From a virus (Duplodnaviria > Caudoviricetes), in the IMG/VR virus record IMGVR_UViG_3300044953_000267, positions 1-62,568 of that record: DNA of 62,568 bases; one strand, written 5' to 3'. How positions within the stretch are numbered: position 1 is the stretch's first letter; every line of letters starts with the position of its first letter. Shown here in pieces: positions 1-60,297 of the stretch. Both the position numbers and the translations under genes were made by a program. Under the pieces are notes generated by a model. The model did no database searches. It saw only the letters and a list, made by a program, of their open reading frames with translations, and was not told the origin of the DNA.

Positions 1-445
1 TGGCATTTGTTGCCCACGAAGCTGTGTTTACGTTAGTAGCCCAACTAGAGGTTTGTGCCCAGCTACTTGTACCAAAAAATAAACTTGCAGTGATAACACT
101 TGCACTAATATTACTTGCAGTTAAATTAGTAACTGTATAACTTAATCCGCTATTTAAAGCATGTGCTGTTGTGGCATTTGTTGCCCAACTTGCTGTTCCT
201 ATTAAATTTCCATAAATATCTGCTTCACCAACCCAAATACCGGATGCACTTACAGTTCCACTTGCACTAATATTACTTGCAGTGATATTAGAAGTACCAA
301 TTAAAGTTCCAGCTCGATCAGTAACAAGAAAGAGATTACTACCGGTAATTTGACGTTCTATAAATGCAAATTGACCATTTGACAATGAACTTCCGCTCGT
401 TTGTGCAATAACGATCATTGATGCAGTTAAATTAGGATATGGCAT
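1..445 (-). CDS. Tail fibre/virion protein, N-terminal part (runs off the window), with TASWA/TSSWA repeats
   Basis: Not in ORF track. Manual translation from ATG at 445 gives MPYPNLTASMIVIAQTSGSS...GTASWATNA...GTSSWAQTSSWATNVNTASWATNA, open to base 1; same repeat style as 53436..56626. Confidence 0.7.
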   Translation of the reverse strand, partial: MPYPNLTASMIVIAQTSGSSLSNGQFAFIERQITGSNLFLVTDRAGTLIGTSNITASNISASGTVSASGIWVGEADIYGNLIGTASWATNATTAHALNSGLSYTVTNLTASNISASVITASLFFGTSSWAQTSSWATNVNTASWATNA

Positions 446-505
446 ACGTTAAAGAGTTTATATTTCTATAATAAATAGAAAAAAAAAATAATAAAAATAA
501 TAAAT

Positions 506-1675
506 TTATTCAAAATCAGATATAGATTGTCTTCTCCAACGACCTCCTACGTATATATAATGATAATCACCATCATACGCCATCCAACCTTCTTCACCCG
601 GACTAGTTGGACTTGCTGGCGGATCATGCCAAATGCTACAACAAGCACTTCCACTTGATGGTGTAAGAGTTTGTTGAATTAAAGCGGCATAACTTGTACG
701 TATTTTTGTTAAAACTTTGCCTCCTTCAGTTGTTGATTTTTCAGTAACAATAGAAGGTTCAGGAAATCTCCATGTTGTATTATCATCTACAACTGGATTT
801 ATATTATAATAAGGATTTGATTTATTATAATACGAATTGACTTTAACATCTTTATTTACAGCTTGCATTTGTGCTGAATTTACTACTTCACCTGTTATAC
901 TTATTTTTCTAGGAGTCAACATTTTTTGTACAGTAGACTTTCTATCTTCAAAACTTTCAGGTAAAAGATATGCAAAAACACTTAAACTAAAAGTGGTTCT
1001 TACCATTCTATCTTTATCAGTAGAAACTTCAACTGTATGAGTATAATCATTTATACTAACTCTGAATTTAAATCTTTGTTGATCTCCCCAATAATCTTCG
1101 CTTGCAAAATTTATTTTTTCTAAAATTTTGTTCATTTGCTCTAAATACTCTGCCCATACCATGAATTCGTATTCAACTTTAACATGATCTGGTAATGTGA
1201 TAGCAAATATTTGATTAACAGGAGCAACTGTGTCATTTAATAAACTAAATTTATCATATTTATTTTTTTCTGAAAACTTGGCCATTACTGGATATGTCAA
1301 ATAACGATTGAACGTTTGTAAATCTTGATTTTTACTAAATGAATTTCTTTTAAACATTAATGCGGGTAATTGAATCTTACCAGTTTGATCTCTAAAAAAT
1401 CCATCGGTTTGCACAGCTTTCCAACGTTCAGGATTTCCATATATAATAGGAACTTTTACATTTTGACCAGAGTCAACAACACTTGGATTAATTATAGTTT
1501 GTAAATATTCCATTATTGTCGTATCGATATCAATCAACGTGACCGTGAAATCCTTTTTCTTATCTTGATCTCTACGAACATCCAATGCCGTATTTTGTGT
1601 ATTTTTAAAATACGGATTTTCCTTATTTTTATTTTCGTTAGAAGGAACTGGATTATTTTTATCTCCTTGCCACAT
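506..1675 (-). CDS. Tail sheath stabilizer/tail completion protein (T4 gp15-like)
   Basis: KVPIIYGNPERW...IQLPALMF motif; position after neck genes; extra C-terminal module. Confidence 0.7.
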   Translation of the reverse strand: MWQGDKNNPVPSNENKNKENPYFKNTQNTALDVRRDQDKKKDFTVTLIDIDTTIMEYLQTIINPSVVDSGQNVKVPIIYGNPERWKAVQTDGFFRDQTGKIQLPALMFKRNSFSKNQDLQTFNRYLTYPVMAKFSEKNKYDKFSLLNDTVAPVNQIFAITLPDHVKVEYEFMVWAEYLEQMNKILEKINFASEDYWGDQQRFKFRVSINDYTHTVEVSTDKDRMVRTTFSLSVFAYLLPESFEDRKSTVQKMLTPRKISITGEVVNSAQMQAVNKDVKVNSYYNKSNPYYNINPVVDDNTTWRFPEPSIVTEKSTTEGGKVLTKIRTSYAALIQQTLTPSSGSACCSIWHDPPASPTSPGEEGWMAYDGDYHYIYVGGRWRRQSISDFE

Positions 1676-1681
1676 ATATTT

Positions 1682-2149
1682 TTATCTTTCTACAAGATTA
1701 ATTTTACTGAGACGGCTATAATGAGTATTACAAATAATGCTATGACTTTTATCAGCTTGACCACCTAATAATTGTTCTTGTATTACATTATTAATTTCGT
1801 GATATCTATTATTAAATAAAATTAAATCTCCAACTTGTGGATAATAATTTGCATCTTTACAAGTATTTTCTCTAAATCTAAATACAACACTTTGATCTCT
1901 ATCTGGTCCAAATCCTTCATCATCGGTAGATGGATCGTTTCGTTCAATTAAACAACTCAATTCAACACCATCATAAAAAGTTTTGCCTTCTTCAGGAGAA
2001 CTTTCTCCATATATGTTTGTTTGTGTTGTATCAGCAGCAATTTTAAAACAAACAGCTAATGTTTGAATAATATTTCTAGTCAATTCAGCATTAATTGAAT
2101 TGATAAAAATTAAATCACGTTCACTATAATATCTTCCAAATAAACTCAT
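1682..2149 (-). CDS. Neck/head-closure protein (T4 gp14-like)
   Basis: TNIYGE and YPQVGDLI motifs; synteny between gp13-like and gp15-like genes. Confidence 0.6.
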   Translation of the reverse strand: MSLFGRYYSERDLIFINSINAELTRNIIQTLAVCFKIAADTTQTNIYGESSPEEGKTFYDGVELSCLIERNDPSTDDEGFGPDRDQSVVFRFRENTCKDANYYPQVGDLILFNNRYHEINNVIQEQLLGGQADKSHSIICNTHYSRLSKINLVER

Positions 2150-2167
2150 AAATATAAATATAATATA

Positions 2168-3196
2168 TTATTTTTTATATTGATTTATTACATCCAGTAC
2201 TATTGCAGGAGAATCTGTTTCTTTAATTCTATATAATGGTATATTATATTTTTTAGCAATTTCATTTTTATGAATATCATTATAATATGATTCTTTTTTA
2301 AAATTATATTTACATTCTTCTAATGTTTGTTTATGCCAAAAATCTCCATCAAATTCCAATAAAATATCATAATCTATTAAATATGCATCAAACAATTTAT
2401 AATTCAATTCATATTGTTTTTTATATTTGATATTATTATCATCAAGAAATTTATATATTTTTATTTCTAACGAAGTTTCTCCATTGTGTTTAAATATTTT
2501 TTCAAATCCCTTTTTTGATGCACTTAATAAATGTTCTCTCCATTTACATTCGTCTTTTTCTTTAACTTTTTTCCAAATATTTCCAACAACTATTTTTCTT
2601 TCTGGATGTTCTTCCCAATATTTTTTCTTTGCGATTGAAATTTTTTTATTTCTTTGCGGAGTGTATATTTTATTTTTAATATCAGGGTTATTTATAAATT
2701 TTAATCTAGCAGAATTTGATTGTTTTTCGATTGTTTCTTGAGATTTAGGTTTACGTACTGCATTTAAATGATTCTGTTTTACATCTTCTCTTTTCATTGC
2801 GATTTTTGTCAAAATAGAAATTTTTTTTCTATTATTTAAATCAGAAAAATATTTTTTTACAAATTTAGAATGAGTATGACTATGTTCATTCGTTTTTGAA
2901 TAATGCTCTACTCCATATTTATTCATAATTGTCTGTTTAGCTTTGTTTCTAGCATCAGTAGTGTTCATCAATTTTCTAGAACAAGCACGACTGCATGTTG
3001 GCGCATATCCAATCGATAAATTTATGTATTTTGTTGTTTGTTTACATATTTTACATAATATGTTTTCTTTTTTAATAAACTTATTATAATAATATTCAGA
3101 TTGAGTTTTGTGTTCTTTTATCAAATGTGTTCCTAAACTCTTAAAATTTTTACATTCACGTTGACAAAGTTGGCATGTTAATTGAGATAAAATCAT
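2168..3196 (-). CDS. Free-standing homing endonuclease, Vsr/DUF559-like PD-(D/E)XK C-terminal domain, with N-terminal zinc fingers and NUMOD-like segments
   Basis: CxxC..H..H finger, KYGVEH repeat unit, C-terminal FDAYL..LLEFDGDFWH...D..KN..A...RI. Confidence 0.75.
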   Translation of the reverse strand: MILSQLTCQLCQRECKNFKSLGTHLIKEHKTQSEYYYNKFIKKENILCKICKQTTKYINLSIGYAPTCSRACSRKLMNTTDARNKAKQTIMNKYGVEHYSKTNEHSHTHSKFVKKYFSDLNNRKKISILTKIAMKREDVKQNHLNAVRKPKSQETIEKQSNSARLKFINNPDIKNKIYTPQRNKKISIAKKKYWEEHPERKIVVGNIWKKVKEKDECKWREHLLSASKKGFEKIFKHNGETSLEIKIYKFLDDNNIKYKKQYELNYKLFDAYLIDYDILLEFDGDFWHKQTLEECKYNFKKESYYNDIHKNEIAKKYNIPLYRIKETDSPAIVLDVINQYKK

Positions 3197-4436
3197 ACAT
3201 GTTAATACATATTAATCCAAACACAAAAACGCCAACATATATAAGTAAAGGGGTTTTTCTAAGTGTTTCTTGTATTTTTTCTGCTTCAGTTGCTTTAGCA
3301 TCTAATTGAGCAGCACGACCACTTGCTTCTAAGTTTTCTCTCAATTGTGTCATGAGAACTTCTTTTTCCGCAGTTGCTTCACTTCTTAGTTCAGCACCAT
3401 CAAGAGTTACTTCTCCACCCGGAATAGGCACTGTATTATATTTCTGTAAAATACGACCTAAAGTTTCTTTACATAAAGCTAAGAAATACTTTTTAATCCA
3501 TTGTTTTCCAACAGCGTTTATACTCTTATAAACTACATTTTGATATGGTGCATTACTATAATCACTTACAACATCATAATTGCTACCACTACTAAATAAA
3601 GATCCAGTTCCAAATTTATCTTTTTCGACTACATATTCAATATAAACAGTATGATCGTAAGTAGGTATTGGAAATATCTTTAATTTATTATTTACAATTT
3701 CAAAACTATATCCACTTTTACGAACTGTATCATTAAATTCAATAGCTTGTCCGCGAAGTAAATCTTCAAAGATAGGAGTCATCAAAAATTGAGTAGCAGG
3801 ACTAAATCCGGCGAATCCCATTTCATTTAATACATTACTATATGACATACCAGTCATACTAAATGGATCGTAAATACGTGCAAATGCAGGAGGAGGACCG
3901 TGAAATACTCTTCTAACTTCAATTCTGTTATTTGATTCAGATATATTACCTATCAATGCTTGTAAATCATATGTTTGTACACTTTGTGTCAAATGTATTC
4001 CGGTTTTCTTAATATTAACATTTCCACCTACACCAACTTCACTGCCATATTGTTTTGATAATTCCACTATATATGGTATACCACTTCCTTTTACATTCAT
4101 ACCAGTAATATTAGGAGCATTTACCACTGGCATGCCTTGTAAATTTAACATATTATTTCTAATATTAAACTGATTTACTTGTGCTCCATATTCAGTAACA
4201 GCTTCTTCAAAACATGCATAAAAATTAACGTCAATCATTTCTATATCAACAATCGGATATCCTAATCTTTTTGCTGCCCAACTTGCTGCTGCTTGACAAT
4301 CAAATTCAAAATATCCTATACTTCCTGTGGCAGCACCTTCGTTCAAATAAAATCCATACGGAACATTAGATGCACTTACTGCTGATCCACTTCCGGGAAA
4401 ACGTACTCTATCTTGGTCTATATTTGCATTTGGCAT
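3156..4436 (-). CDS. Neck protein/head-tail adaptor (T4 gp13-like)
   Basis: RLGYPIVDIE, WIKKYFLALCKE.LG..KY..PIPGGEVTLDG motifs. Confidence 0.8.
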   Translation of the reverse strand: MPNANIDQDRVRFPGSGSAVSASNVPYGFYLNEGAATGSIGYFEFDCQAAASWAAKRLGYPIVDIEMIDVNFYACFEEAVTEYGAQVNQFNIRNNMLNLQGMPVVNAPNITGMNVKGSGIPYIVELSKQYGSEVGVGGNVNIKKTGIHLTQSVQTYDLQALIGNISESNNRIEVRRVFHGPPPAFARIYDPFSMTGMSYSNVLNEMGFAGFSPATQFLMTPIFEDLLRGQAIEFNDTVRKSGYSFEIVNNKLKIFPIPTYDHTVYIEYVVEKDKFGTGSLFSSGSNYDVVSDYSNAPYQNVVYKSINAVGKQWIKKYFLALCKETLGRILQKYNTVPIPGGEVTLDGAELRSEATAEKEVLMTQLRENLEASGRAAQLDAKATEAEKIQETLRKTPLLIYVGVFVFGLICINMYDFISINMPTLST

Positions 4437-4725: not shown

Positions 4726-5972
4726 TTAAATATACCTTTTAACCATTCAAGTATTTTTTGCATCCAAGATTTTTTAATCGGTAAAGTAGATATAAATTGA
4801 TTATCTATTAATTTAATTTTAGTTTCATCTACACTATTTCCCCAAAAACAAAGTAATTTTGTACTTTCTTCATGAGAATTAAATTTTTTTCTATATCCTA
4901 ACTGTACTTTATTTTTTGTAATTATTATATTTTCAAATCCGGGATATTTTGCATGATCTACATTCGGAGCATTTACATATCCTATAAAATTAGAAACAAT
5001 AGATGGTTGATACCAATGCCAATAACAATCTCCGATTGAGAGTTCTATATTATTATTAGAAACCTTTAAATTTTTATTAAAACTGATTTTCTCAGTGTTG
5101 TCCCAATGTTGACAGCTTAATTGCAAAAATTGCCAAACATTTTTTGCAACATTATTTTCAATTATAAAATCTATATTTGTCCAACTATCCATGTAAATAC
5201 AAGCACCGTTAAAATTAATAAAAGTATTATCTATAATTTTTGCATTTTTTGTATTTCCTATAGAAATTCCGTGCAATGGACTTTGTTGATTTACAACATC
5301 AAAGTTCATATTTTCAAATATATTACCTTTTACTAAGGTATCAAATCCACCAACAGCAACAACTGTATTTTCCGGAACATGTTTTGTTGTACTATTCGAT
5401 TTTCTTCCCGGCAAAGTAAAATAATTATCTATTATTTGCGTTCCTCTACCATTATTGTTTATTGGTCCAATTATAATTTGAAAACATTCGTGTAAATCTC
5501 TAGAACCCACACCAAAATTTATAAATTTACAACCTTTTACAATATTGCTTTCTCCTCTTATTCTAATGCCCATCAAAGTTGCTGTACTTTTATTATTTTC
5601 ATAATTTCCATCAAACGTTATACCTTCAATTAAATTATCATCACAACTTTCATTCCAATTAGTTGTAACCATTACTACTACGTCCTTTGGTTCATCAAAC
5701 AAATATGCTATATTACAATTATCAATCCATCGTAATATTGTTTTATCTCTACCGGCTCCAATTATTTTAATTTTATGTTTTCTACTCCATCCCCATACAA
5801 TACTACTATCACTCCATACATGACCAAGATGCCAGTTTTTATCGTTTCTTCCTATAATATGTTCACCTTCACTGATATAACATTCACCTGTAACATCAAT
5901 ACACTTATTAATGTATGGCGCAATATTTTCTCCTATTTTATAACCATAAAACTCTGGAGTATTTTCATTCAT
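4722..5972 (-). CDS. Right-handed parallel beta-helix (pectate lyase-like) protein
   Basis: IIGAGRDKTIL, IEGITFDGN, repeated I.DN.F/I.NN.I coils. Confidence 0.7.
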   Translation of the reverse strand: MNENTPEFYGYKIGENIAPYINKCIDVTGECYISEGEHIIGRNDKNWHLGHVWSDSSIVWGWSRKHKIKIIGAGRDKTILRWIDNCNIAYLFDEPKDVVVMVTTNWNESCDDNLIEGITFDGNYENNKSTATLMGIRIRGESNIVKGCKFINFGVGSRDLHECFQIIIGPINNNGRGTQIIDNYFTLPGRKSNSTTKHVPENTVVAVGGFDTLVKGNIFENMNFDVVNQQSPLHGISIGNTKNAKIIDNTFINFNGACIYMDSWTNIDFIIENNVAKNVWQFLQLSCQHWDNTEKISFNKNLKVSNNNIELSIGDCYWHWYQPSIVSNFIGYVNAPNVDHAKYPGFENIIITKNKVQLGYRKKFNSHEESTKLLCFWGNSVDETKIKLIDNQFISTLPIKKSWMQKILEWLKGIFK

Positions 5973-6886: not shown

Positions 6887-7633
6887 TTATAATTTTCGTT
6901 TATAATACTTTACTAGTGTTTTACTAACACTATATTTTTCAGATAATTGCTGTAATGTATAATTATTTGATTGTAAATCCACTTTAAATTCAGCTTTTCT
7001 AATCTTAAATGCCGCCTTGCTTTCACTTATACGCTTTTTATCATTGTCACTCATCGCACCACGTTGCTTTCCCTTCAATCCATTGTCATAAGCATAATTC
7101 ATTTTGCGATTTTGTAGTTTTATTCTACGCTCATTATATAATTTATTACCATCCTCTTCTCCATGCTTGTCTACGAACCATTGCAGTGAATAACGACCAA
7201 TTGCTGCTTCTTTTTGCTTTTCAATAGATTCAGGTTTGTGAGTTTTTCCATGCATATGACCTTGATTGTTTGCAATTTTCATTTTTTCTAATATAGCAAT
7301 TTTATCGGAATGGTTTGTGAAATTATCACCGCCACATGCTTTGTCTGAGATATTATAGCCAATTTGGCTTGGTTTAAACATATCAAGATAAAATTGTTTG
7401 CGTTCAAAAAGTTTTGTTTCTTCCACAGTTTTAACTATTGTAAATTCAAATGAATCTTTACCATGATAATTCCATGCATGTTGCAGTTTAGGATTTATAT
7501 GTTCATTTTTTATTAAATCATTTTGATGTTCTCACCATCTTCTATCGAGATTTTTGTAAGATCCAATGTAAAATTTACCGTTGTTTTTATTGGTTATTTT
7601 GTATATTCCGCTATTTTTAGTATTGTCATTCAT
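6887..7633 (-). pseudogene. GIY-YIG homing endonuclease with NUMOD3 domain, interrupted by in-frame TGA (7532-7534)
   Basis: From ATG 7633: MNDNTKNSGIYKITNKNNGKFYIGSYKNLDRRW*EHQNDL...LQHAWNYHG...FERKQFYLD, in frame with track ORF 6887..7426; HGKTHKPESIEK is NUMOD3-like. Confidence 0.85.
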
Positions 7634-7654
7634 AAATTTAATTAGTACATGACT

Positions 7655-7685
7655 ATGTATAGCAGGATTTTAAGGTAAAATCAAT
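7655..7685 (-). promoter_or_regulatory. Sigma70-like promoter upstream of the GIY-YIG gene
   Basis: Minus strand TTGATT-N17-TATACA. Confidence 0.35.
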
Positions 7686-7703
7686 ATATAATAATTAAAA
7701 AGC

Positions 7704-7733
7704 AAAAAACCCCAGCAAATGCTGGGGTTTTTG
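7704..7733. terminator. Intrinsic terminator after the major capsid gene
   Basis: AAAAAACCCCAGC-AAAT-GCTGGGGTTTTT perfect stem with A/T tracts on both sides. Confidence 0.9.
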
Positions 7734-7757
7734 TGTTATTTTAATTTAAATTATGGA

Positions 7758-9467
7758 TTATACTTGGTCGAGATCACCAATATATACTTTTCCATAAAAT
7801 TCGGGACGGATTACCTTCTTAGCATAGCGAGTCAATACACCACGACGTGGAGTAAAGTTGACTGGATCGTATACCATTGGAGTTTGAACGAGTGGGATGT
7901 ATGGAGCGTAAACTGCACCGGTTTCGAGGAAGTTGTTTCCACGGAAACCAACCAAGATTACGTTTTCAACCATATATGGGTTCTTGTAAACTTGGAAGCG
8001 ACTTGCGAAGCTGCCAACACGAGAAACACCCATTGCAAACTTAGCGCTGTCACCATCGGTGTTAACAACATATCCCGGAATAGATTCCAAGATGGTTGCT
8101 ACGTCTGGTGAGCAAACCAAGAAGTTTGCACCACCACGGAGAGTCAATTGGTGAATCTTGTTAGATACCTTTTGAATCTTATTACCAAGAGTTTGGAACC
8201 ATGTGCTCTTGACATATGCTGTCTTGTTAGCAACATCAGTACCAACACTGATTGAACTAACGTTTCCGTTACCATCCAATGAGGTTGTCAATTCACGACC
8301 AACAACTGCGCTCCAAGCTTGAGTTGTTGCTCCCGGAGCAGCACCAATTAACATGTCAAGGATTTCAAGATCGATTTCCATTGAAACGTATTCGCTCAAG
8401 AGAGCGGTCAATTCGGCTTCAGCATCAATACTGTGGTAAGCATTCAAGTCTTGAGCCAATTCTGGGGTCCAGACTGCCTTTAACTTACGGGTCTTAGCAA
8501 CGATTGGTTCGCTCTTAAGTTCCAAGTTAACTTCTGGAATTCCGATTGAATCCAAGCTATCAGTCGATGTCTTGTCTTCGAAGTCACCACGAGTTTGATC
8601 AGTTGGTTGCTTGTTGTAAGTTACAGTGTTTCCACTGAATTGTCCACCCTTAGCACTAATTAAACCAGCAGAAGCACTGAAGAACAATACAATGCTGTAT
8701 TGTGGACTTGAGATACTTCCAGTGTTATATGCTTCGTTGAATTCATTCAAGTTAGTATAAGCACTTGCGCTTGCGATAGTGAATGAACGAACTGCATTCA
8801 AGTCTGCGTTGAAAATTGCAGAAGCATTTGGGTTACCAGCACCAGAAGTATTGTCACCCAATACAACAGTTGCTTTGTAAATTCTTGCGGCAGCAACACT
8901 TGCGCTATAATCAATATTATTATTAACATCACTATAAGAAGCAGTGTTAATAGTTAATGTTGCACTTGAAGTAGTGAATGTCAATGCACTTGAAGTAGCA
9001 TTGTTGATAGTATATCCATAACGTCCTACTCCGTAAAGACCTCCACTTGCAGCGTCGGTAGAACCAAGTTTCTTATCAGTACCACCGAACAATGATGTTC
9101 CGGAAGTAAATGGAGCCTTAGTTGTACCATACTTGAAGTCTAAATAGAAGATAAGACCGCTTGGAAGATTCATTGGTTGTACACTAACGAATTCCTTAGC
9201 ACTGATTTCAGCAAATACACGGCGAACCAATGGAAGAGCTACGCCAGCCCATTGTTCACTGTTTGCTGAAGTACCAGTTGCGGTAGCTTCATCAAGCAAT
9301 TGTTTTGCTTGGTTTTCGAGCATGATAGACATATTTGCCTTCTCAACACCTTGAAGACCTTCAAGAAGACCAGTCTTATCCCACTTTGATTGCAATCCAC
9401 GAGTTTCAGCCATTAATCTGGCTTGTGGATTCATATTATTTGTCAATAATGATTTAATATCACTCAT
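7758..9467 (-). CDS. Major capsid protein (T4 gp23-like)
   Basis: LPLVRRVF, VSVQPMNLPSGLIFYL, AKTRKLKAVWTPELAQDL.AYHSIDAEAEL, YAPYIPL, FTPRRGVLTRY. Confidence 0.97.
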   Translation of the reverse strand: MSDIKSLLTNNMNPQARLMAETRGLQSKWDKTGLLEGLQGVEKANMSIMLENQAKQLLDEATATGTSANSEQWAGVALPLVRRVFAEISAKEFVSVQPMNLPSGLIFYLDFKYGTTKAPFTSGTSLFGGTDKKLGSTDAASGGLYGVGRYGYTINNATSSALTFTTSSATLTINTASYSDVNNNIDYSASVAAARIYKATVVLGDNTSGAGNPNASAIFNADLNAVRSFTIASASAYTNLNEFNEAYNTGSISSPQYSIVLFFSASAGLISAKGGQFSGNTVTYNKQPTDQTRGDFEDKTSTDSLDSIGIPEVNLELKSEPIVAKTRKLKAVWTPELAQDLNAYHSIDAEAELTALLSEYVSMEIDLEILDMLIGAAPGATTQAWSAVVGRELTTSLDGNGNVSSISVGTDVANKTAYVKSTWFQTLGNKIQKVSNKIHQLTLRGGANFLVCSPDVATILESIPGYVVNTDGDSAKFAMGVSRVGSFASRFQVYKNPYMVENVILVGFRGNNFLETGAVYAPYIPLVQTPMVYDPVNFTPRRGVLTRYAKKVIRPEFYGKVYIGDLDQV

Positions 9468-25817: not shown

Positions 25818-25921
25818 ATGTATTAATTCCTTTCAAAATAGTTTAAATTTATCAAATAAACTAAATATAAATATAGTTAATTTTTTCAAGATTATAATAT
25901 TTATCGGAAATTTTATAAAAA

Positions 25922-27949: not shown

Positions 27950-27975
27950 ATACTCATAAATATATACCAGATTTA

Positions 27976-31176: not shown

Positions 31177-31178
31177 AA

Positions 31179-32102: not shown

Positions 32103-32108
32103 CTATAC

Positions 32109-46485: not shown

Positions 46486-46881
46486 TTATACTTTATTTTG
46501 TGTCAATTCTACATTTACTGAATCCGATTGATTATTTACAATAAATTCTACTTTAATGTATACTTTATAAGTATCTTTAAAATTGTTTTTTTCACTATCA
46601 GTAAATTTTAAATTAACATTTTTAACAGTTACGCCCGGTATCCACAAATTTATTTTGTCTTGGATTACTTTTTTCAAAATTTCTAGAGTTTCTTCCAAAT
46701 TTTGTTCAAACAGATATTCTTGTAAACCACTTGAAAACTGTGGTTGCATTCTTCTTTCACCTGAATTAGTAAGCAATAAATTTATTATGTTAGATTTAAT
46801 TTGAGTCAATGTATCATATGATTGATCAAAAAATCCTGCATTTCCACGAGTTAATGGTAGTACTAATCCTATAGGTTTCAT
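46486..46881 (-). CDS. Baseplate gp25/gpW-like protein
   Basis: IKSNIINLLLTNSGERRMQP.F...L.EYLFE. Confidence 0.9.
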   Translation of the reverse strand: MKPIGLVLPLTRGNAGFFDQSYDTLTQIKSNIINLLLTNSGERRMQPQFSSGLQEYLFEQNLEETLEILKKVIQDKINLWIPGVTVKNVNLKFTDSEKNNFKDTYKVYIKVEFIVNNQSDSVNVELTQNKV

Positions 46882-50833: not shown

Positions 50834-51808
50834 TCAAAAACTAAAAAATCTTTTAGGATATTGTTCAGCAGAAGGTTGTGCGGGAGTTTCCGAAGGAATT
50901 TCGTTAACATTAGTAACTTCTGACGTAACTATATCTTTCGAAACCTCTTCAGATTTAGTTTCTTGATTTATATTTTCTTTTTCTTTTTCTAATATAGACT
51001 CTGGTTTAGTAAAATTAGTTACACTATAATTTTTATTGATTGTTGTATTATATGCCAACAACAAACATATTGCCAATGGATCGAACACAGATATTAATGC
51101 TATAATAAACCATTTTGCTACTTTATTAATATTTACTCCAAATTCATCTGCAACAAATTTAAACGTTTGTAAATCTTTTTTAGACCCAGATTGTATTTTT
51201 AACTGTCCTATTTGACTGTCTAGTTTTTGTAAATCGTCTATAGATAATTGAATCTTTTCATTTTCTTTTTGAATCGAAAGTTCACTTTGATCTATTAATT
51301 CTTTAGTTTGTTCTTGTATTTGTTTTAATTGTACAGGATTTCTTGCAATTAAAATATTGGTCATACTTTGACTTAAACGCGATTCTTGACTATTTCTTAA
51401 CTCGGTTATACTAGAAATTCTCGATTTTGATGAATTAATTTTATCTTTAATAGTTATTTTTTGATCTTCAATTACTTTTATTTTTTCTTGTAACAAACTA
51501 TCTTCTATACTGGATTGTTGATAAGCACTGCTCAAATATCCAAAAATTCCAAGTGAAGTAATTAGCATCAATACAAATATAGCCACAGTTAAATATATTT
51601 TTAAAAATCCTTTTGTTAAAGTCCAGTATCTGTATAGAAAACTTGTCGCAACAAGTTTTCCTAATTCTAATGAACTTGCCATCAACATAGCTGCGATAGA
51701 AGATCCACTAAATAGCATGCCAATACCGACAATACTAAAAAATGCTGCACAGGATGCGATAAACAAAGATGTTAATCCAACTAAATTTTCAAATTTTGTA
51801 AATTTCAT
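50834..51808 (-). CDS. Multi-pass membrane protein with long coiled coil
   Basis: 3 N-terminal TM helices (LELGKLVA, ITSLGIFGYLS), coiled coil, VFDPLAI TM. Confidence 0.7.
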   Translation of the reverse strand: MKFTKFENLVGLTSLFIASCAAFFSIVGIGMLFSGSSIAAMLMASSLELGKLVATSFLYRYWTLTKGFLKIYLTVAIFVLMLITSLGIFGYLSSAYQQSSIEDSLLQEKIKVIEDQKITIKDKINSSKSRISSITELRNSQESRLSQSMTNILIARNPVQLKQIQEQTKELIDQSELSIQKENEKIQLSIDDLQKLDSQIGQLKIQSGSKKDLQTFKFVADEFGVNINKVAKWFIIALISVFDPLAICLLLAYNTTINKNYSVTNFTKPESILEKEKENINQETKSEEVSKDIVTSEVTNVNEIPSETPAQPSAEQYPKRFFSF

Positions 51809-51879: not shown

Positions 51880-52365
51880 TTACTTAATAGGTATCTTTTT
51901 TGCTACTTGTTTTTCATTCGACGGTTTTATTTTAAACAATGTAACAGTTAATATACCATTTTCAAATTTTGCATCTATATTTTCTTTAGCTAAATTATCT
52001 GCTAATGTAAAACTTCGACGAAACGAAGAATGTTTTAGTTCTTTATAAATTAATTTTCCAAACTCGTCTTTTTGTTCTTTTTTACGTTTATTTCCACTTA
52101 TAACTAAAATATTTTCAAGAACTTCTACATTGACATCTTCTCTCGGTAACCCCGGTATTTCAGCTTCAATTACTATACGATCATTGTAATCAGTAATATC
52201 TACCTTTGGATATGATCCTTTTTCGAAAAAATCAACACCAAAATCTTGGGTGAAGTTAGGAGAGTTTGCTTTGAAGAATTCATCAAAAATTCTATCAAAT
52301 GGAGTTAAAAATTCTTCTCTTTGAAGAAGATTATACATCGGTGTTTTATATTTAATAATACTCAT
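51880..52365 (-). CDS. Small heat-shock protein (Hsp20/alpha-crystallin)
   Basis: PKVDI, AEIPG, SFRRSFTL, AKFENGILTV; likely start ATG 52365. Confidence 0.93.
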   Translation of the reverse strand: MSIIKYKTPMYNLLQREEFLTPFDRIFDEFFKANSPNFTQDFGVDFFEKGSYPKVDITDYNDRIVIEAEIPGLPREDVNVEVLENILVISGNKRKKEQKDEFGKLIYKELKHSSFRRSFTLADNLAKENIDAKFENGILTVTLFKIKPSNEKQVAKKIPIK

Positions 52366-52482
52366 ATTTTTTTCTAAATAGCTTATTAAGCCTATTTTCA
52401 TATATCTCATTTTGAGCATATATGGATGATTTTAATATCATCATCTATTATATATAGCAAAAAAATTATTTTTCAATTTTTT

Positions 52483-53412
52483 TTATTCAATTGGATTTGG
52501 TGGAGGTAAATTTTTTTTAGTATACTCACTAATAGTTCTATTTTTAAAGTTTATGCCTGCATATATTTCATACTCATGTAAAGATCTAATATTGCCAAAT
52601 CCATATTTGCCTATATTTTCATTATTTTCAAACAATTGCTTGTATCGATTCATAGACTTTTTATCCAAATCATACCAATTATATTTACTTTTATTAATAA
52701 TTTTATTGTGATCTTCCCAATGCTTGTGTCTATAAGCTCTATCATATTGATGCCATCCTATAATTTTATGCGGGTGATATAAATCATAGCCATGAGTAAA
52801 TGCTCGTACTCCTATGTTTGTTTCTTCACCAAAAAAATAGTAATTAGGATCATATGGAACTTTCTTAATAAAATCACCATCTACAAACGCAAAATGTCCA
52901 CTAAAAAAACGAGATGGAACAGGATATTTAATATTTTTTATATTTGGAATTTGTTCGGGAACAAAAAACAATGGTCCTTCATCCAAAAACTTTTCCAAAT
53001 TCATCTGCCATACTTCTTTTTTATAAATCTTTTTACACGAATCAAAATGTGGCAAATATGCTGTTAATAAAGGATTGGAACTTCCTAAACTTTTACATTG
53101 ATCATATAACTTATATAGTTTTGTATCCCACCCTTTTACAAATCTATGATGTGAATCTAATTGCAATATAAAATCTTCATCTTTATATTCTTTTTGTATC
53201 AAACTTCTTGCCCAACAAACACCTTTACTTTCGTTATACGGTATATCAATGTACTTGATATATTTTTTAATAGGTAAAATAGATTCATTAGAATCATGTT
53301 GCCATGCAACAACAATTCGTAGTCGTTTTGGATAATCTGCATTTTTTATTAAATCTAATACAGTTGGTATTAGTTGTGGATCTCTATAACTTGCGATTTG
53401 TACAAATATCAT
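52483..53412 (-). CDS. GT60-like glycosyltransferase (polypeptide/hydroxyproline GlcNAc-transferase family)
   Basis: IFVQIASYRDP, SKGVCWAR, LQLDSHHRF, FFGEE....R.FTHGYD. Confidence 0.8.
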   Translation of the reverse strand: MIFVQIASYRDPQLIPTVLDLIKNADYPKRLRIVVAWQHDSNESILPIKKYIKYIDIPYNESKGVCWARSLIQKEYKDEDFILQLDSHHRFVKGWDTKLYKLYDQCKSLGSSNPLLTAYLPHFDSCKKIYKKEVWQMNLEKFLDEGPLFFVPEQIPNIKNIKYPVPSRFFSGHFAFVDGDFIKKVPYDPNYYFFGEETNIGVRAFTHGYDLYHPHKIIGWHQYDRAYRHKHWEDHNKIINKSKYNWYDLDKKSMNRYKQLFENNENIGKYGFGNIRSLHEYEIYAGINFKNRTISEYTKKNLPPPNPIE

Positions 53413-53435: not shown

Positions 53436-54839
53436 TTAATACATATTTTGAGTTACCACAGCGTATATAACTGTATTATTTTTTGCACCAGATCCTTTTG
53501 GTCCTAGATTCGATGTATTTACTGAATAAAAAGTGAAAAAATCTGCACGAGCTGCATTTCCAGTAGAGATAGCCGGTTGACTTCCATTTTTCCAAACGAT
53601 AGGACAATCAAACGTTTCTCCACTGCTGCTTAAAAAGGATCCTGTAAAATAAATTTTACCATTCCACGAACCATTATTCTCATATGCTTGATTGACTATT
53701 ACGTTTAAATGAGTACCCTGACTCATTGTTATAGATGCGGTTCCGTCATTTTGGAGTTCAATATACTTTGTTGCGTAATTTTCCGAGTTCAAACTGATAA
53801 CTTGTCCCTGTTGTGTAATTGCAAGATAGGAATCACTCTTTAACTTTAATCCTCCGTTAACTTCTAATCTTCCTCCCATGTAAGTTTTACCACTACTACT
53901 TACACAAAAAGTAACATTATTTGTTGATCCACTACCATAATATACTTCAATCGCTTTGTGTAAATGATCAACAGTAGGATTTGCACTACTTCCACTATAA
54001 ATCTGAATCATTAATCTTGATTCGTGATTTTCTGAACTGGAATCAACACCGATATTAAATGTACCATCTTTTGAAATACTTTGCACTCCTGCCAATGGCC
54101 AGAAATAAAATCCGTTTGAACGCATTCGCATTACTCTTAAAATACCATATGCAAGATTATCTGCTGTATAATCTTTTCCTCCAAATGTCCAATTATTAGA
54201 TCCTGTATATGATATCCATTCAAATGAACCTCTTCCCCAACTTGCACTTAATGGACTTCCAAATGTATAATAATAACCATCTGCTCCTACTGTAAATATC
54301 ATTGCATCTGATGCAGTTGTAAGACTATCTAAAATTAACGAACTATTAAAAGTTGAACTAACTTGTATAATCGGTTGTGAATTTCCATAAACACGCAAAT
54401 ATTTATTTGTACCATGTACTTGAAAATTATCTGTAGAAATATTGCTACTACTTACAGAAGAATAATACATGCTCGCATCTGTCAAACTATTTGCAGAGTT
54501 CCACTTTGTAAAATATTGTGCTGTACCAGTTCCAATTAGTCCTCCTGCATTTTGTGCATAACTTGCAGATAATGCATAACTAGCACTATTAACAGTACCA
54601 ACTACTCTTGAACCAGTAACAAATGATGCAGTCAATGCATTATTAGCCCAACTAGAAGTACCTGTTAATGTTCCAATAAAACTTCCCGTAAAACTACCAG
54701 TGCTCAAAAAAGATTGTAATGAAGATATAGGTGCTCTGTGTGTAGTTAAACTACTACTCTTATTTACAGGAAAATAATCACTGCTAGTAATTGTTCCTAC
54801 AAATTCATTTAATTCACTTATTTTTACACTTGTTGACAT
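53436..54839 (-). CDS. Tail fibre/receptor-binding-like virion protein
   Basis: VKISEL N-terminus; TGSFTGS, TSSWA, SASYA repeats. Confidence 0.65.
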   Translation of the reverse strand: MSTSVKISELNEFVGTITSSDYFPVNKSSSLTTHRAPISSLQSFLSTGSFTGSFIGTLTGTSSWANNALTASFVTGSRVVGTVNSASYALSASYAQNAGGLIGTGTAQYFTKWNSANSLTDASMYYSSVSSSNISTDNFQVHGTNKYLRVYGNSQPIIQVSSTFNSSLILDSLTTASDAMIFTVGADGYYYTFGSPLSASWGRGSFEWISYTGSNNWTFGGKDYTADNLAYGILRVMRMRSNGFYFWPLAGVQSISKDGTFNIGVDSSSENHESRLMIQIYSGSSANPTVDHLHKAIEVYYGSGSTNNVTFCVSSSGKTYMGGRLEVNGGLKLKSDSYLAITQQGQVISLNSENYATKYIELQNDGTASITMSQGTHLNVIVNQAYENNGSWNGKIYFTGSFLSSSGETFDCPIVWKNGSQPAISTGNAARADFFTFYSVNTSNLGPKGSGAKNNTVIYAVVTQNMY

Positions 54840-54850: not shown

Positions 54851-56626
54851 TTAAGTTAATCCTACACATGGTGATTTTCCTACAATTCCTAATTGAACTT
54901 CTCCATTACCTCTAGTAATATATGACCAATACTTTTCATCTCCGGTAGTAGTATCATACTCTAAAGAAAATTGTGGATCCCAGTCATTATCATATGTAAA
55001 ATCTTTGTACGATTGTATTACAACTGCTTTTTCGTAATTTAATTGGCTAAATCTAGTTGCATCGGGTTGTTGAAACCACTCTCCTATATTAGCAGAATTG
55101 TATCCATTTATATTAAATACGTGACATGCACCACATCCAGATGTAATTAAATATAATCTTTTCTTAATAGGATTATAATTCGTAGAAAAAATATACTGAT
55201 TTTTATATGCTTCAAGTTTATAAAACGCTGCCCAGTTTGTAATATTTGCTTGAGCAGCAGAACCTATTAAATTCATCGGATATGAATTGTGAAGTGCTTG
55301 GTATGTATAAGTTGTTCCATTATAATAGATTTTATACATTTGCATGCCACTTAATGTACCCCTATTGACTCTACTTGCCATCATATAAAATGTAGGATTA
55401 GTAGTAGTTGCATTATTATCATTTTGATTTGCAGTTGTATTTACATATACACAACGTAATCCTTGCCAAGCTGCTCCTATGCTTCTACTAATTGCAGTTG
55501 GTGTACTAGATATATTGCTCAATACATTTATAAAACCACTAGCATCACCATATACAATACGGTCTATATTTCCTCCAAGACCTTTAGCATCGTCATATTT
55601 TTGAATTGAAAAAAATCCACCTATTGCAAGATCACTAGGATAACGATCATATACAAATTCAATATCATGATTTACTTGATCTTGTCTAATAATTTGACAG
55701 TACCATTGAGATCCTAATCCTTTATAAGATGCTATATAATGATAATCGCCATATGTAATACTACCTAACGGATCTTTGATATTGAATGATTGTGCAGAAG
55801 TAACTCCATATGTAGTTGTTGCGTTTGCAGTTTGTGCATAAACTGCATAACTAGCAGTTAAACTATAACTTGCTGATGCAGCGTTACTCGAACTAAATGA
55901 ATAACTTGATGTTCTAGCATTTGATGCAGATCTAGCGTTAGTTGCGTAAGATGATGTGCCTAGAAATCCAACTTCGTTTACTACACTTGATGTAAAACTA
56001 GAAGCAGATATAGACCCACTCAATGTTAATAAAGAGACAGTTCCTGTTACTGAATCTGGTTGAAATGTAAATGAGCTTTTTCCATTGAATAAGCCAACAG
56101 GATCATGATATTGAACTGAATATTGACTTCCTCCCGGACTTACAGTACTGCCGCTTATACCTGATAATGTAACTATAATATTATTACTTTCAACATCTTC
56201 ACTGACTGTCACACCACCTGTTCCAGTAATATTTTTAAAAGTCAAATTTGGTCCGTTTCCGTTTGCTACAACAGATCCGCCTCCAACACCTACACTTTCA
56301 GCAGTTACACTCAACGAATTTAATGCATAGCTAGAAGTCTTAGCATAACTTGAACTTCTTGAATTAACTGACCAACTACTTGTTCCTAAAAAACCAACTT
56401 CATTGACCACACTAGAGGTAAAACTGGAACCAGATACGGAGCCAGAAAAAGTAAAATTGCTGCCATTTTTATTTATACCTAAAGTTGAAACAGTGTATGC
56501 TCCAAAATCTCCCGCTGTTATTTTTTTAGTTTCCTGATGTGTTAAATCTGTTATATAAAGCAAATCAGTAGACTGTACTTCAGCGGTGGTATATGCATTT
56601 AAATCTGTAATTATTTTGCTGGCCAT
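54851..56626 (-). CDS. Tail fibre/receptor-binding-like virion protein
   Basis: KIITDL..ETKKIT N-terminus; SSYA repeats; PGGS..SVQY linker; internal duplication. Confidence 0.65.
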   Translation of the reverse strand: MASKIITDLNAYTTAEVQSTDLLYITDLTHQETKKITAGDFGAYTVSTLGINKNGSNFTFSGSVSGSSFTSSVVNEVGFLGTSSWSVNSRSSSYAKTSSYALNSLSVTAESVGVGGGSVVANGNGPNLTFKNITGTGGVTVSEDVESNNIIVTLSGISGSTVSPGGSQYSVQYHDPVGLFNGKSSFTFQPDSVTGTVSLLTLSGSISASSFTSSVVNEVGFLGTSSYATNARSASNARTSSYSFSSSNAASASYSLTASYAVYAQTANATTTYGVTSAQSFNIKDPLGSITYGDYHYIASYKGLGSQWYCQIIRQDQVNHDIEFVYDRYPSDLAIGGFFSIQKYDDAKGLGGNIDRIVYGDASGFINVLSNISSTPTAISRSIGAAWQGLRCVYVNTTANQNDNNATTTNPTFYMMASRVNRGTLSGMQMYKIYYNGTTYTYQALHNSYPMNLIGSAAQANITNWAAFYKLEAYKNQYIFSTNYNPIKKRLYLITSGCGACHVFNINGYNSANIGEWFQQPDATRFSQLNYEKAVVIQSYKDFTYDNDWDPQFSLEYDTTTGDEKYWSYITRGNGEVQLGIVGKSPCVGLT

Positions 56627-56652
56627 ATTTCATTAATATATATAAATATACA

Positions 56653-57790: not shown

Positions 57791-57821
57791 AAGTTTTTAT
57801 ATATCTGTATATATTATATTT

Positions 57822-58073: not shown

Positions 58074-58075
58074 AA

Positions 58076-58297: not shown

Positions 58298-58359
58298 ATA
58301 TATTACACTTTTTATTGTTTATATTATTTGGTTTTGAGTAAAAAATACATGATAACCAG

Positions 58360-59072: not shown

Positions 59073-59073
59073 A

Positions 59074-59247
59074 TTAGTCTATTGAGTTATAACAGTTTTT
59101 ACATAATTGTCCGGCTCCCTCAATATAACCATATCTCTCTGATACATCTTTAGTTAAAGGAATATTAGTTTCGACTTTACAAACAATACATTTTTCAAAT
59201 TGAATTACTTCAAAGTCATTTTCTTTTTTAATAATTGTATTATTCAT
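59074..59247 (-). CDS. Small Zn-ribbon protein (57 aa)
   Basis: Manual translation MNNTII...EKCIVCKVET...YIEGAGQLCKNCYNSID. Confidence 0.65.
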   Translation of the reverse strand: MNNTIIKKENDFEVIQFEKCIVCKVETNIPLTKDVSERYGYIEGAGQLCKNCYNSID

Positions 59248-59250
59248 AAT

Positions 59251-59511
59251 TTATTCAACTTGTTTAGTATACATTACTTTCCCCTCAGATGTATAGTACG
59301 CTCTATATACAGTCTCAACAATATTAGTAGTTTGTGTTACATTTGTTGATTGTTTTGAATATTCTATGTAGTCATTCATTATTCTTTTAATTTTACCTTC
59401 TTTTGCGACTTCGTTCAACGCAGGTTCGTAACTGTATCTAAGTATAGTACAACCAGATTGAGTAAGCAATCAAAAAAGTAACCAACAATTTATTAATTTT
59501 TTTATTTCCAT
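59251..59511 (-). pseudogene. Putative lipoprotein with in-frame TGA in the signal peptide (59470-59472)
   Basis: From ATG 59511: MEIKKLINCWLLF*LLTQSGC..., in frame with track ORF 59251..59469. Confidence 0.55.
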
Positions 59512-59526
59512 ATTATATAATTCATA

Positions 59527-60297
59527 TTAACTAAAATTTTTATCAGATTCTTGTATATATGTAATATTTTTAGGTTCTTTAATGACTCCTGTATTTAAAA
59601 ACGAATAACTATAACTATATTTACCGATGTGAGACAATCTTATAGTTGTATCACAATATAATTTTATTCCAATTTGTCTTAGTCTATGACAAAATGCAAA
59701 ATCTTCTCCTAGATATTCATCATCAAGAAGTATTGGATAAAAATATGGATATACATTATATTGTCCTCCCCATATTTTCACTTTTTTCATGTTTAAATCT
59801 TTTGCCATTTTTTCATATACACTTCTGTGAGTATACATAAATCCAGTGGCAGAATAATTTACTTCATACAATCTTCCTTGTTCACCTAACTTTACTTTAG
59901 TATCAACAAATTGGGTAGTTAATGAAGGCCAACCTTTTACACTATAAGGAGCACTTACAAATAATAACTTGTGATTTATTATTTTTTCTACATCATGTGG
60001 CCAAAATGCAACATCAGCGTCAATCCAAAACAAATGTTCGAATCCTGAATCTAATGCTTCTTGTGCCATTGCACATCTTCCTTGATCAATCGCAGACCAA
60101 CCATATCTTCGCCAAACTGTATATCCTAAATTTTCCAATTTTCGTAAAGATTCATCAACAGATGGTTCGATGCTATTAGAAACTGGTACTAAAATTACAA
60201 CAGATTTAGGAATAACCTTATTTGAAAGTACATTTTTTAAATCTTTTTGTTTCTTTTCACGAAACTTCCTAAATAAATTGACAATATAATCTATCAT
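59527..60297 (-). CDS. GT-A fold glycosyltransferase
   Basis: R...A..AL..GFEHLFWIDAD (DxD), ATGFM, GEDFAFC.R, L.HIG. Confidence 0.8.
   Translation of the reverse strand: MIDYIVNLFRKFREKKQKDLKNVLSNKVIPKSVVILVPVSNSIEPSVDESLRKLENLGYTVWRRYGWSAIDQGRCAMAQEALDSGFEHLFWIDADVAFWPHDVEKIINHKLLFVSAPYSVKGWPSLTTQFVDTKVKLGEQGRLYEVNYSATGFMYTHRSVYEKMAKDLNMKKVKIWGGQYNVYPYFYPILLDDEYLGEDFAFCHRLRQIGIKLYCDTTIRLSHIGKYSYSYSFLNTGVIKEPKNITYIQESDKNFS

Follow-up and report, generated by a model that had tools for sequence, protein, structure and literature searches.

The window examined here, i.e., the whole 62,568-nucleotide (nt) stretch of IMG/VR virus record IMGVR_UViG_3300044953_000267, derives from a source genome consisting of a single contig of 62,568 bases, with a GC content of ~29% and nearly all genes on the minus strand. 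It covers 62.6 kb of the genome of a large, aquatic, T4-like myophage, encoding virion proteins together with a glycosyltransferase (GT) gene of family GT60 and a probable GT-A-type gene. The subject of this report is a short motif, [ST]-[GA]-S, which is confined to the virion-module proteins, where it lies in their lineage-specific parts, and which could possibly serve as an O-glycosylation sequon. The original prediction had assigned this role to the broader pattern [S/T]-[G/A/S]-S and to the two window GTs. The genes concerned are listed below with their sites of the broader pattern ([ST][GAS]S), observed versus expected from whole-protein shuffles, a convention kept throughout this list.

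2..445, minus strand: large fibre protein, first 148 amino acids (aa), running off the window; 13 sites vs 2.67.
3156..4436, minus strand: neck / head-tail adaptor protein (phrog_211, E 7.5e-12); 5 sites vs 0.77.
7758..9467, minus strand: major capsid protein (MCP), T4 gp23-like, with a lineage-specific central insert (phrog_138, E 1.3e-69, residues 289-551); 7 sites vs 2.65.
8619..8999, minus strand: MCP segment (residues ~157-283) holding all 7 sites, at 158, 166, 175, 188, 233, 249 and 264.
22521..25817, minus strand: tail sheath, 1098 aa, with large N-terminal inserts (phrog_23, E 4.4e-67, residues 736-1095); 18 sites vs 6.68.
25922..27949, minus strand: 675-aa protein of unknown family, adjoining the sheath gene; 8 sites vs 2.90.
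33632..35947, minus strand: 771-aa baseplate-module protein; 21 sites vs 5.02.
35950..36570, minus strand: 206-aa baseplate-module protein; 4 sites vs 0.67.
36574..37671, minus strand: 365-aa baseplate-module protein; 10 sites vs 3.34.
38346..42458, minus strand: 1370-aa baseplate-module protein; 21 sites vs 3.98 (z 8.6).
42917..44497, minus strand: 526-aa baseplate-module protein; 20 sites vs 6.10.
52483..53412, minus strand: GT60-family glycosyltransferase, 309 aa (PF11397, E 4.3e-65).
53436..54839, minus strand: 467-aa fibre-like protein directly upstream of the GT60 gene; 20 sites vs 6.08.
54851..56626, minus strand: 591-aa fibre-like protein, no family match; 16 sites vs 5.78.
59527..60297, minus strand: probable GT-A-type glycosyltransferase (from language-model neighbours and motifs), 256 aa, predicted to be soluble.

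Among the 57 open reading frames (ORFs) examined in the window, the 12 motif-rich proteins (7212 aa) were chosen by count and the other 45 served as the comparison set; 2000 whole-protein shuffles were run per protein, together with local shuffles confined to 20-residue windows (15-residue windows were also run). Over all 57 ORFs, [ST][GAS]S occurred 177 times versus 64.6 expected from whole-protein shuffles. In the 20-residue-window shuffles, the 12 motif-rich proteins held 163 copies versus 57.9 expected (z 14.9) and the other 45 ORFs 14 versus 18.9, making the enrichment stronger than first stated. With [ST][GA]S, the corresponding local-shuffle figures were 109 versus 28.8 (z 15.8) in the 12 virion proteins and 11 versus 11.4 in the other 45 ORFs, and the extended form hydrophobic-[ST][GA]S-hydrophobic reached 34 versus 3.2 in the former and 0 versus 1.2 in the latter. 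The ratio for the 12 proteins is somewhat inflated because they were chosen by motif count; neither the z of ~15 nor the recurrence of the pattern in other genomes is a selection effect. The examples quoted in the original prediction were all present in the genes named, i.e., ATSSA, NTASY, YSASV, NTGSI and FSASA in the MCP, VSGSF (three times), FSGST, YSGSF and TSGSI in the sheath, and GSGSAVSASN, ATGSI and SSGSN in the neck protein, and the "about 20 copies" estimated for the 526-aa protein proved to be exactly 20. Its claim of near-absence elsewhere also agreed with the counts: the 1066-aa protein, termed Mre11-Rad50 in that prediction and matching a metallophosphoesterase at its N-terminus in a profile search, held 1 copy, and the portal, prohead protease, terminase pieces and PhoH, which were identified by profile searches along with an HSP20, held 0. 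Likewise, only 0-1 sites each were counted in the gp6-like wedge protein, in the 543-aa protein encoded at 47467..49098, and in a 226-aa ORF lying downstream of the sheath gene.

The motif proved to be directional and specific. Within the 12 proteins, SGS had the highest z of all tripeptides and TGS the third highest, and among the 22 highest-z tripeptides the only others seen more than 10 times were TSS, TAS, and SAS. S[GA]S and T[GA]S were strongly enriched (64/17.3 and 45/11.3, observed/expected) compared with S[GA]T and T[GA]T (14/10.9 and 11/7.1), and the permuted forms [GA]S[ST], [ST]S[GA], and [GA][ST]S were at expectation. Position preferences pooled from 74 proteins with at least 5 sites, taken from the window and six relatives, revealed that only S (3.3-fold) and T (3.6-fold) were enriched at position 1, that G (3.9-fold) and A (3.0-fold) were enriched at position 2 with S reaching only 1.5-fold, and that S alone was enriched (3.45-fold) at position 3 (T 1.2, G 0.7, A 0.8, N 1.1). 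The core motif is [ST]-[GA]-S with Ser only at position 3; the Gly or Ala in the middle of the initially described pattern was upheld and the Ser there was not. The reported preference for a preceding hydrophobic residue was recovered as well, with a hydrophobic fraction of 0.55 at position -1, and it extended to the position just after the Ser (0.57; background 0.35).

Several trivial origins of the signal were evaluated. The 107 sites considered use 67 distinct 9-mers and both AGY and TCN serine codons, indicating that selection acts on the protein, and a DNA-level motif was ruled out by this codon diversity. Local composition was ruled out by the 15- and 20-residue-window shuffles together with the unenriched mirror and Thr-ending forms. 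All-against-all blastp of the window proteins returned one 39-aa match and no internal repeats, by which BLAST-detectable paralogy and internal repeats were rejected; the motif thus spans proteins that share no detectable homology. Although the motif-rich proteins have a high content of S, T, and G, an artefact of composition, low complexity, or DNA-level repeats is therefore extremely improbable, considering that the enrichment survives local shuffling, that the mirror and Thr-ending forms are not enriched, that the codons are diverse, and that the pattern is kept across genomes of 29-43% GC. Previously known sequons were not enriched in the 12 motif-rich proteins, neither D[ST][AILVMT] of Bacteroidota O-glycosylation (22/26.2) nor the N-linked sequons N-x-[ST] (105/112.5) and [DE]-x-N-x-[ST] (9/9.2).

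The sites lie in particular parts of the proteins. In the MCP, all seven fall at residues 158-264, between the two capsid-profile matches (33-103 and 289-551), and in the sheath residues 126-461 hold 14 of the 18, on the N-terminal side of the conserved sheath domain (736-1095); both regions presumably correspond to outer insertion domains in T4. The 526-aa protein has a motif-dense N-terminus of ~140 aa and a C-terminal part that includes a beta-sandwich. The fibre at 2..445 is built of tandem [ST]AS-x-x units and GTASWATNA-type elements, and its homologues in relatives are giant fibres, including one of 2234 aa with 101 sites versus 22.8 in relative G001. Moreover, the 467-aa fibre-like protein contains TGSFTGSF and SASYALSASYA units; it had no family or PDB match, and the name "fibre" rests on these repeats only. 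In addition, the 771-aa protein carries FG-GAP (beta-propeller) repeats (PF14312, E 7.5e-17), and the 675-aa protein had no Pfam, PHROG, or NCBIfam match.

Conservation of the motif was evident in orthologues, above all in G003, a 296-kb complete environmental genome, where the same orthologues were enriched, and the same ones not enriched, as in the window. There, 48 of 88 aligned window sites (55%) show the motif at the same position, and the position-3 Ser is kept in 75% of cases versus 52% for other Ser; site retention was 34-35% in G004 and G005 and 27-29% in Flavobacterium phage immuto and Microcystis phage Mel-JY01. In the MCP alignment, four columns hold the motif in 47-57 of 70 MCPs while varying among TGS, SGS, SAS, TSS, and TAS. 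The neck orthologues showed [ST][GA]S ratios of 5/0.7 (G003), 6/0.8 (G001), and 4/0.7 (Mel-JY01), the G003 orthologue of the 675-aa protein reached 22/5.8 for the same form, and the G003 orthologue of the 206-aa protein had 4/0.3. Furthermore, the 1370-aa protein had enriched orthologues in G003 (16/3.1) and Mel-JY01 (13/2.4), and Mel-JY01 encodes five paralogues of the 365-aa protein (7/1.6, 7/1.6, 6/2.4, 9/1.2, and 6/0.8). The 42 distinct orthologues of the 526-aa protein, when pooled, had 272/55.6 for [ST][GA]S and 21/38 for [ST][GA]T; distant orthologues of ~355 aa, which are without the motif-dense N-terminal ~140 residues, still had 3-9 sites versus 0.5-1.6. Within the G003 fibre cluster (112999..117957, minus strand), a 1652-aa ORF was depleted (2 versus 10.1) and its neighbours were 3- to 6-fold enriched.

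A related capsid protein is encoded on more than 597 IMG/VR contigs. By capsid identity, the closest cultured phages are Mel-JY01 and immuto (52-53%), and Rhodothermus phage RM378 comes next (38%); window positions 40000-60400 had no megablast match to cultured phages. The clade also takes in G003, immuto, Mel-JY01, and RM378. Genome-wide, [ST][GA]S (observed/expected) was 120/40.2 in the window, 447/188.5 in G003, 235/80.1 in G001, 120/55.2 in G005, 125/87.5 in G004, 177/90.0 in immuto, 184/102.6 in Mel-JY01, and 79/37.4 in RM378, i.e., an enrichment of 1.4- to 2.9-fold in the seven relatives, whereas seven unrelated phages were not enriched (T4 44/57.2, HTVC008M 98/77.7, XacN1 166/151.1, Ma-LMM01 67/71.9, crAss001 22/31.8, SPO1 42/38.3, and P-SSM2 174/150.4). 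The Thr-ending form [ST][GA]T was at 178/162 across G003. The non-structural regions of clade genomes were neutral (G003 53/49.1, Mel-JY01 25/25.3, and immuto 12/21.7). Since the negative Ma-LMM01 infects Microcystis like Mel-JY01, and the negative crAss001 infects Bacteroidota like immuto, the host does not set the pattern, and a host-driven signal was ruled out. This clade restriction favours a clade-specific trans-acting factor over universal fold physics. As a separate observation, [ST][GA]T was enriched in fibre-like ORFs of XacN1 (235607..261711: 14/4.9, 17/7.6, and 10/4.4; 236/167 genome-wide) and at the edge of or outside the clade in an L245 ORF (21/5.1), G004 (1..3614, 53/25.1), and Mel-JY01 (635..3052, 75/22.4), which may reflect collagen-like or other repeats.

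A group named "moraphages" was described in 2025 as aquatic jumbo phages with genomes of up to 307 kb and predicted Bacteroidota hosts, whose capsid tree places a Rhodothermus phage nearby, whose members all carry heat-shock genes, and of which four core orthologous groups are putative GTs with a role that the authors leave open (PMC12619734). This description (aquatic, size, Rhodothermus phage, heat-shock genes, and GTs) fits G003 and the present window, the match being by description only, and the available part of that paper reports no motif or sequon analysis.

Some features of the motif suggest that it could be a fold element only, used in the fibrous and decorative beta domains of the clade, with the GTs serving another purpose, e.g., alteration of the host envelope. 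Hydrophobic residues are favoured on both sides of the motif, the gaps between sites peak at 4 (42), 5 (54), 6 (83), 9 (45), and 15 (36) residues compared with ~3 each in shuffles, and the giant fibres carry regular pentad arrays such as ISASVITASLFTGSVSGSLFGTASWA. In the AlphaFold model of the 526-aa protein, the predicted local distance difference test (pLDDT) score was 65.2 overall and 36-61 at 16 of the 20 sites; its motif-dense N-terminus was predicted as long beta strands (pLDDT 44-61), and the three sites in blocks with pLDDT of at least 81 (195, 313, and 455) all sit in a loop just before a strand. Taken together, the flanks, preferred spacings, pentad arrays, and low-confidence extended-beta prediction point to a structural motif, which could be a tight turn or a serine ladder of trimeric shafts built as beta-helices or beta-spirals, with single turns of the same kind recurring where strands begin in globular inserts. 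Positional conservation fits a structure as well as a sequon, and S/G-rich fibre segments of a comparable kind are found in individual proteins of P-SSM2 (20/7.3) and HTVC008M. However, fold physics is universal, yet the seven unrelated phages, which have beta-rich fibres and baseplates, are unenriched genome-wide; packing of small residues would allow G, A, and N at position 3 as well, none of which is enriched there; proteins that share no detectable homology, the neck protein and the MCP with its insert among them, all carry the motif; and at least seven GT genes plus a sugar pathway in G003 would be left without a target. A purely structural role is a doubtful but serious candidate, nearly as likely as a glycosylation sequon. 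Foldseek with the 526-aa model found only generic immunoglobulin- or macroglobulin-like beta-sandwiches, none at E<=0.001, and the MCP model, built from a too uniform alignment of 33 sequences, had a pLDDT of 41.2.

Regarding the glycosyltransferases of the window, the GT60 assignment was firm (220.9 bits versus a cut-off of 21, aligned to positions 96-350 of the 352 in the profile and, in addition, over an N-terminal stretch), and the orthologues in relatives were also above the PF11397 cut-off. A metal-binding DxD/DxH motif of GT-A type is a feature of the GT60 family, and an LDSH (DxH-type) sequence at residues 85-88, invariant in four aligned orthologues, probably represents this catalytic motif. 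The protein has no transmembrane-like segment (maximum hydropathy 0.79), and both window GTs, being without such segments, are predicted to be soluble. For the gene at 59527..60297, by comparison, the assignment as a second phage GT stood only as probable: no Pfam GT match was found at E<=0.01 (only DUF3131 at 0.0085), the NCBIfam HpsN GT model gave 19.8 bits versus a cut-off of 425, and the gene matched phrog_1574 of unknown function (E 3.1e-20). Nevertheless, WIDADVAF (DxD) and LGEDF motifs are visible, and the language-model neighbours (0.97-0.99) belong to clusters auto-named "Glycosyltransferase family protein", in two of which PF00535 and PF03452 occur in 24% and 12% of members, implying that it is probably a GT-A enzyme; its homologues adjoin fibre genes in G001 and G003. 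PDB sequence searches returned nothing of note for either window GT, nor for the single fibre-like and the single baseplate protein queried.

The gene neighbourhood of GT60 was surveyed over 80 loci, gathered with an alignment query (a single-protein GT60 query gave none). The conserved frame is PhoH-[variable cassette]-GT60-HSP20, with HSP20 as the downstream neighbour in 28 of 75 neighbours tallied; in the window this gene is as follows.

51880..52419, minus strand: HSP20 small heat-shock protein, conserved neighbour downstream of GT60 (PF00011, E 2.6e-20).

The statement that GT60 lies directly downstream of the two fibre-like genes is correct for the window, where the gap is 23 nt, but it holds among near relatives only: a fibre-like homologue was upstream in 17 of 76 cases, and distant loci have small motif-free neighbours. 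Two further arrangements were seen, namely a single ~870-aa ORF with two tandem GT60 domains inside the baseplate block of G005 (29722..32334) and two adjacent GT60 genes in L245. Literature searches for "GT60" and phage returned nothing relevant. A role of GT60 as a DNA glycosyltransferase was also considered; two papers on the glycosylation of phage DNA made no mention of GT60, PF11397, or XacN1.

According to the original prediction, GT60, with the GT-A gene, would itself read [S/T]-[G/A/S]-S and decorate the whole particle with alpha-GlcNAc. The GT60 enzymes characterised so far transfer O-GlcNAc to polypeptides, the family membership is strong, the enzyme is predicted to be soluble, the gene closely follows two motif-rich fibre-like genes, and PF11397 is present in four of five long relatives searched, with the double-domain gene of G005 inside a baseplate block. 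This version was not sustained, however: immuto and Mel-JY01 are without PF11397 and RM378 is not among the four cultured phages matched by tblastn with GT60, yet all three keep the motif enrichment in orthologous baseplate, sheath, and neck proteins, while XacN1 carries a GT60 among its replication genes and is at only 166/151.1, and distant GT60 loci have motif-free upstream genes. As GT60-less relatives keep the motif and XacN1 lacks it, GT60 is not the enzyme maintaining the motif, and a whole-particle role for it is quite unlikely; GT60 may act on a subset of proteins.

A different set of GTs is shared within the clade. A listing of G003 ORFs that have homologues in immuto as well as in Mel-JY01 holds 41 entries, ten of which were searched against Pfam in one scan, and five of these 41 form a glycosyltransferase cassette (GT4-GT4-GT2) comprising a GT-B protein of ~480 aa (split in G003), a second GT-B protein of ~436 aa, and a GT2 protein of ~220 aa (222 aa), with an 872-aa GT1-domain protein near the G003 cassette. 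The cassette is syntenic in G003, G001, immuto (gp181, gp180, and gp178), and Mel-JY01, and the first enzyme also occurs in RM378; no match was found in T4, HTVC008M, P-SSM2, XacN1, Ma-LMM01, crAss001, or SPO1. The motif-rich relatives without GT60 are therefore not devoid of GTs, since they carry these other clade-conserved ones. In addition, the giant fibre genes of G003 and G001 are interspersed with a 341-aa GT-B gene and a homologue of 59527..60297, and G003 has at least seven GT genes plus a sugar pathway.

Beside the G003 cassette (23183..29849) are genes for a DegT aminotransferase, an NDP-sugar 4,6-dehydratase, a TPP-dependent enzyme, two HpcH/HpaI aldolases, and a 4Fe-4S protein, a set that suggests synthesis of an unusual amino or branched sugar. 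Similarly, the immuto cassette adjoins two DegT genes and further GT2 genes, as well as genes for a dehydratase, a methyltransferase, and a PglD-like acetyltransferase; no phosphoglycosyl transferase was found among the nine immuto cluster proteins scanned. The DNA of immuto analysed by liquid chromatography-mass spectrometry contains fdPreQ1 in place of deoxyguanosine, and the available part of that report gives no glycosylated nucleoside (PMC10516641), making DNA an unlikely target of the immuto GTs. Nine clade GTs run against NCBIfam matched only the C-terminal part of generic GT4 models, apart from a single SdgA match of 15.5 bits, and the best PDB sequence match of immuto gp181 was the chlorovirus GT B736L (weak, E 0.0016).

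The strict hydroxyl-small-Ser specificity in peripheral parts of unrelated proteins of one clade favours a trans-acting reader, and the large conserved set of GT and sugar genes, located partly in structural operons and apparently not directed at DNA, favours glycosylation as that reader. As such, we tentatively prefer the possibility that the motif is a clade-wide virion O-glycosylation sequon. The hydrophobic-[S/T]-[G/A]-S-hydrophobic element would serve as acceptor, or as the site recognised, for a machinery of protein O-glycosylation that is encoded by the phage and works in the cytoplasm, in which soluble GTs would put a sugar on one motif hydroxyl, most likely that of the position-3 Ser, before or during assembly. 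The outcome would be a glycan-coated particle covering the capsid insert, sheath inserts, neck, outer baseplate, and fibres. The initiating enzyme would more likely be a clade-core GT4-type protein encoded outside the window than GT60, and GT60 and the GT-A-like gene, located inside late structural blocks, may be lineage-variable accessory enzymes, possibly for a subset such as the adjacent fibres. The analysis shows the motif, its specificity and conservation, its restriction to virion proteins and to this clade, and the content of GT genes; from these patterns we infer the glycosylation of virion proteins, the motif as its site, and the acting enzyme. The fuller scenario, in which the clade (possibly moraphages plus immuto, Mel-JY01, and RM378) has a cytoplasmic O-glycosylation system of its own, with a sequon that recurs hundreds of times over every outward-facing virion protein, a rare-amino-sugar coat, and GT60-type diversifiers, is put forward with somewhat greater reserve.

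Known systems offer partial parallels. The virion glycans of mycobacteriophages are described as sitting at the C-termini of capsid and tail-tube subunits (PMC12619734, citing Freeman 2023). Inspection of the corresponding sequences revealed, in Che8 (5051..5872 and 7613..8422), the C-termini KTGS in the MCP and SDGS in the tail tube and, in Corndog (20547..21779 and 24316..25131), LVGS in the MCP and KGDS in gp49, i.e., four of four end in Ser and three of four in G-S. These x-G-S termini are a suggestive parallel to the motif of this clade. As far as the available part of that source extends, phage-encoded soluble GTs are proposed to decorate the capsid or tail of mycobacteriophages (Che8, Corndog, and Myrna), and GTs are likewise encoded here; the difference is that those are siphophages with C-terminal sites and proven glycans, whereas the present case concerns ~100 internal candidate sites across a myophage virion. 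Corndog gp35-38 had no phmmer match at E<=10 to 12 GTs of the window, G003, and immuto, and a C-terminal GS or AS was seen in no protein among the 57 of the window.

Chlorovirus and giant-virus capsids are glycosylated by virus-encoded enzymes, with their own GTs and rare-sugar pathways acting independently of the host; these, however, are viruses of eukaryotes whose sequons are mostly N-linked and atypical, and no substrate homology to this clade was found. In Gram-positive bacteria, GtfA/GtfB, an adjacent GT-B pair, carries out cytoplasmic O-GlcNAcylation of the S-A-S type repeats of serine-rich adhesins, after which further GTs act. The clade cassette also consists of two adjacent GT-B genes followed by a GT2, but no NCBIfam GtfA/GtfB match was among the matches listed, and the substrates here are folded virion proteins rather than long disordered repeats. 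The GT60 family includes Dictyostelium Gnt1, which acts on a hydroxyproline of Skp1, and the polypeptide alpha-GlcNAc transferases of Dictyostelium and Trypanosoma; the window GT60 is, like Gnt1, soluble by prediction and far above the PF11397 cut-off, whereas the known acceptors (Skp1 hydroxyproline and Thr-rich mucins) are unlike [ST][GA]S. To our knowledge, no phage or bacterial GT60 has a known substrate. Moreover, the heptosylation of the autotransporter beta-helices AIDA-I and TibA and the O-glycosylation of flagellin are cytoplasmic and modify Ser in strand-loop-strand or locally hydrophobic contexts of proteins that are later exposed, although they involve different enzyme families and no defined [ST][GA]S sequon.

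A trans-acting reader need not be a GT. Phosphorylation, acylation, or docking of a clade-specific chaperone or cement protein during assembly could also account for a clade-specific, hydroxyl-specific pattern shared by many proteins, which calls for a common reader without saying which. HSP20 is conserved beside GT60, and several clade-core genes, including 50834..51808 and 49467..50366, have no known function. Nonetheless, no kinase or other modifying enzyme appeared among the clade-core genes annotated (the 10 of 41 shared ORFs in one Pfam scan, plus others), and we know of no small heat-shock protein that reads short polar motifs, rendering such a reader unlikely.

Several points weigh against the O-glycosylation sequon, beyond the structural indications described above. 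No glycan has been observed in any clade member, and no report of a virion motif or glycans in this clade was found in the literature searched. The motif and the cassette are both clade traits, so their co-occurrence amounts to about one evolutionary event and is confounded by phylogeny. The cassette, furthermore, had no match in the partial contigs G004 and G005 or in the window, and RM378 holds only one of its enzymes; neither immuto nor Mel-JY01 has a PF11397 match anywhere in its complete genome, and for RM378 the tblastn search is the sole sign of its absence. The clade-core GTs match only generic GT4/GT2 nucleotide-sugar motifs and none of the models for families that glycosylate proteins. 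GTs are also encoded by P-SSM2 and XacN1, which are not enriched in the motif, and avoidance of the motif in non-virion proteins, considered as a further expectation, was rejected as inconsistent among the three clade genomes.

The remaining features of the window include baseplate wedge proteins identified by profile searches.

44499..46481 and 46486..46881: baseplate wedge proteins.

The large terminase is split over three overlapping ORFs (284, 246, and 394 aa; 18951..21704, minus strand), whereas in relatives it is a single gene of ~531 aa. Of the three, the N-terminal one matches Terminase_6N and the 394-aa ORF has weak intein/HINT matches below the cut-offs (E ~8e-4), so the split may reflect an intein or homing-element insertion. 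In addition, a 164-aa ORF (60947..61441, minus strand) has a weak match to a ParE-like toxin domain (E 6.8e-4, 20 bits versus a 24.4-bit cut-off).

Glycosylation of phage virions is already known, so far documented only in a few mycobacteriophages and at subunit C-termini; what would be new here, if true, is an internal sequon, the whole particle, a myophage, and different enzymes. No internal sequon for the glycosylation of phage virions would have been defined before it, and bacterial viruses would have their counterpart to the self-glycosylation of chloroviruses; it would also bear on what the many "auxiliary" glycosyltransferase genes of environmental phages mean. This idea is directly testable, as immuto, Mel-JY01, and RM378 are in culture. 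If the motif is structural instead, it would still be a new and highly specific signature of the fibre and decoration domains of this clade. If it is a sequon, an abundant and widespread freshwater and marine lineage would coat its whole particle with self-made glycans, and such a coat would bear on stability, stickiness, grazing, enzymatic decay in water, and receptor recognition.

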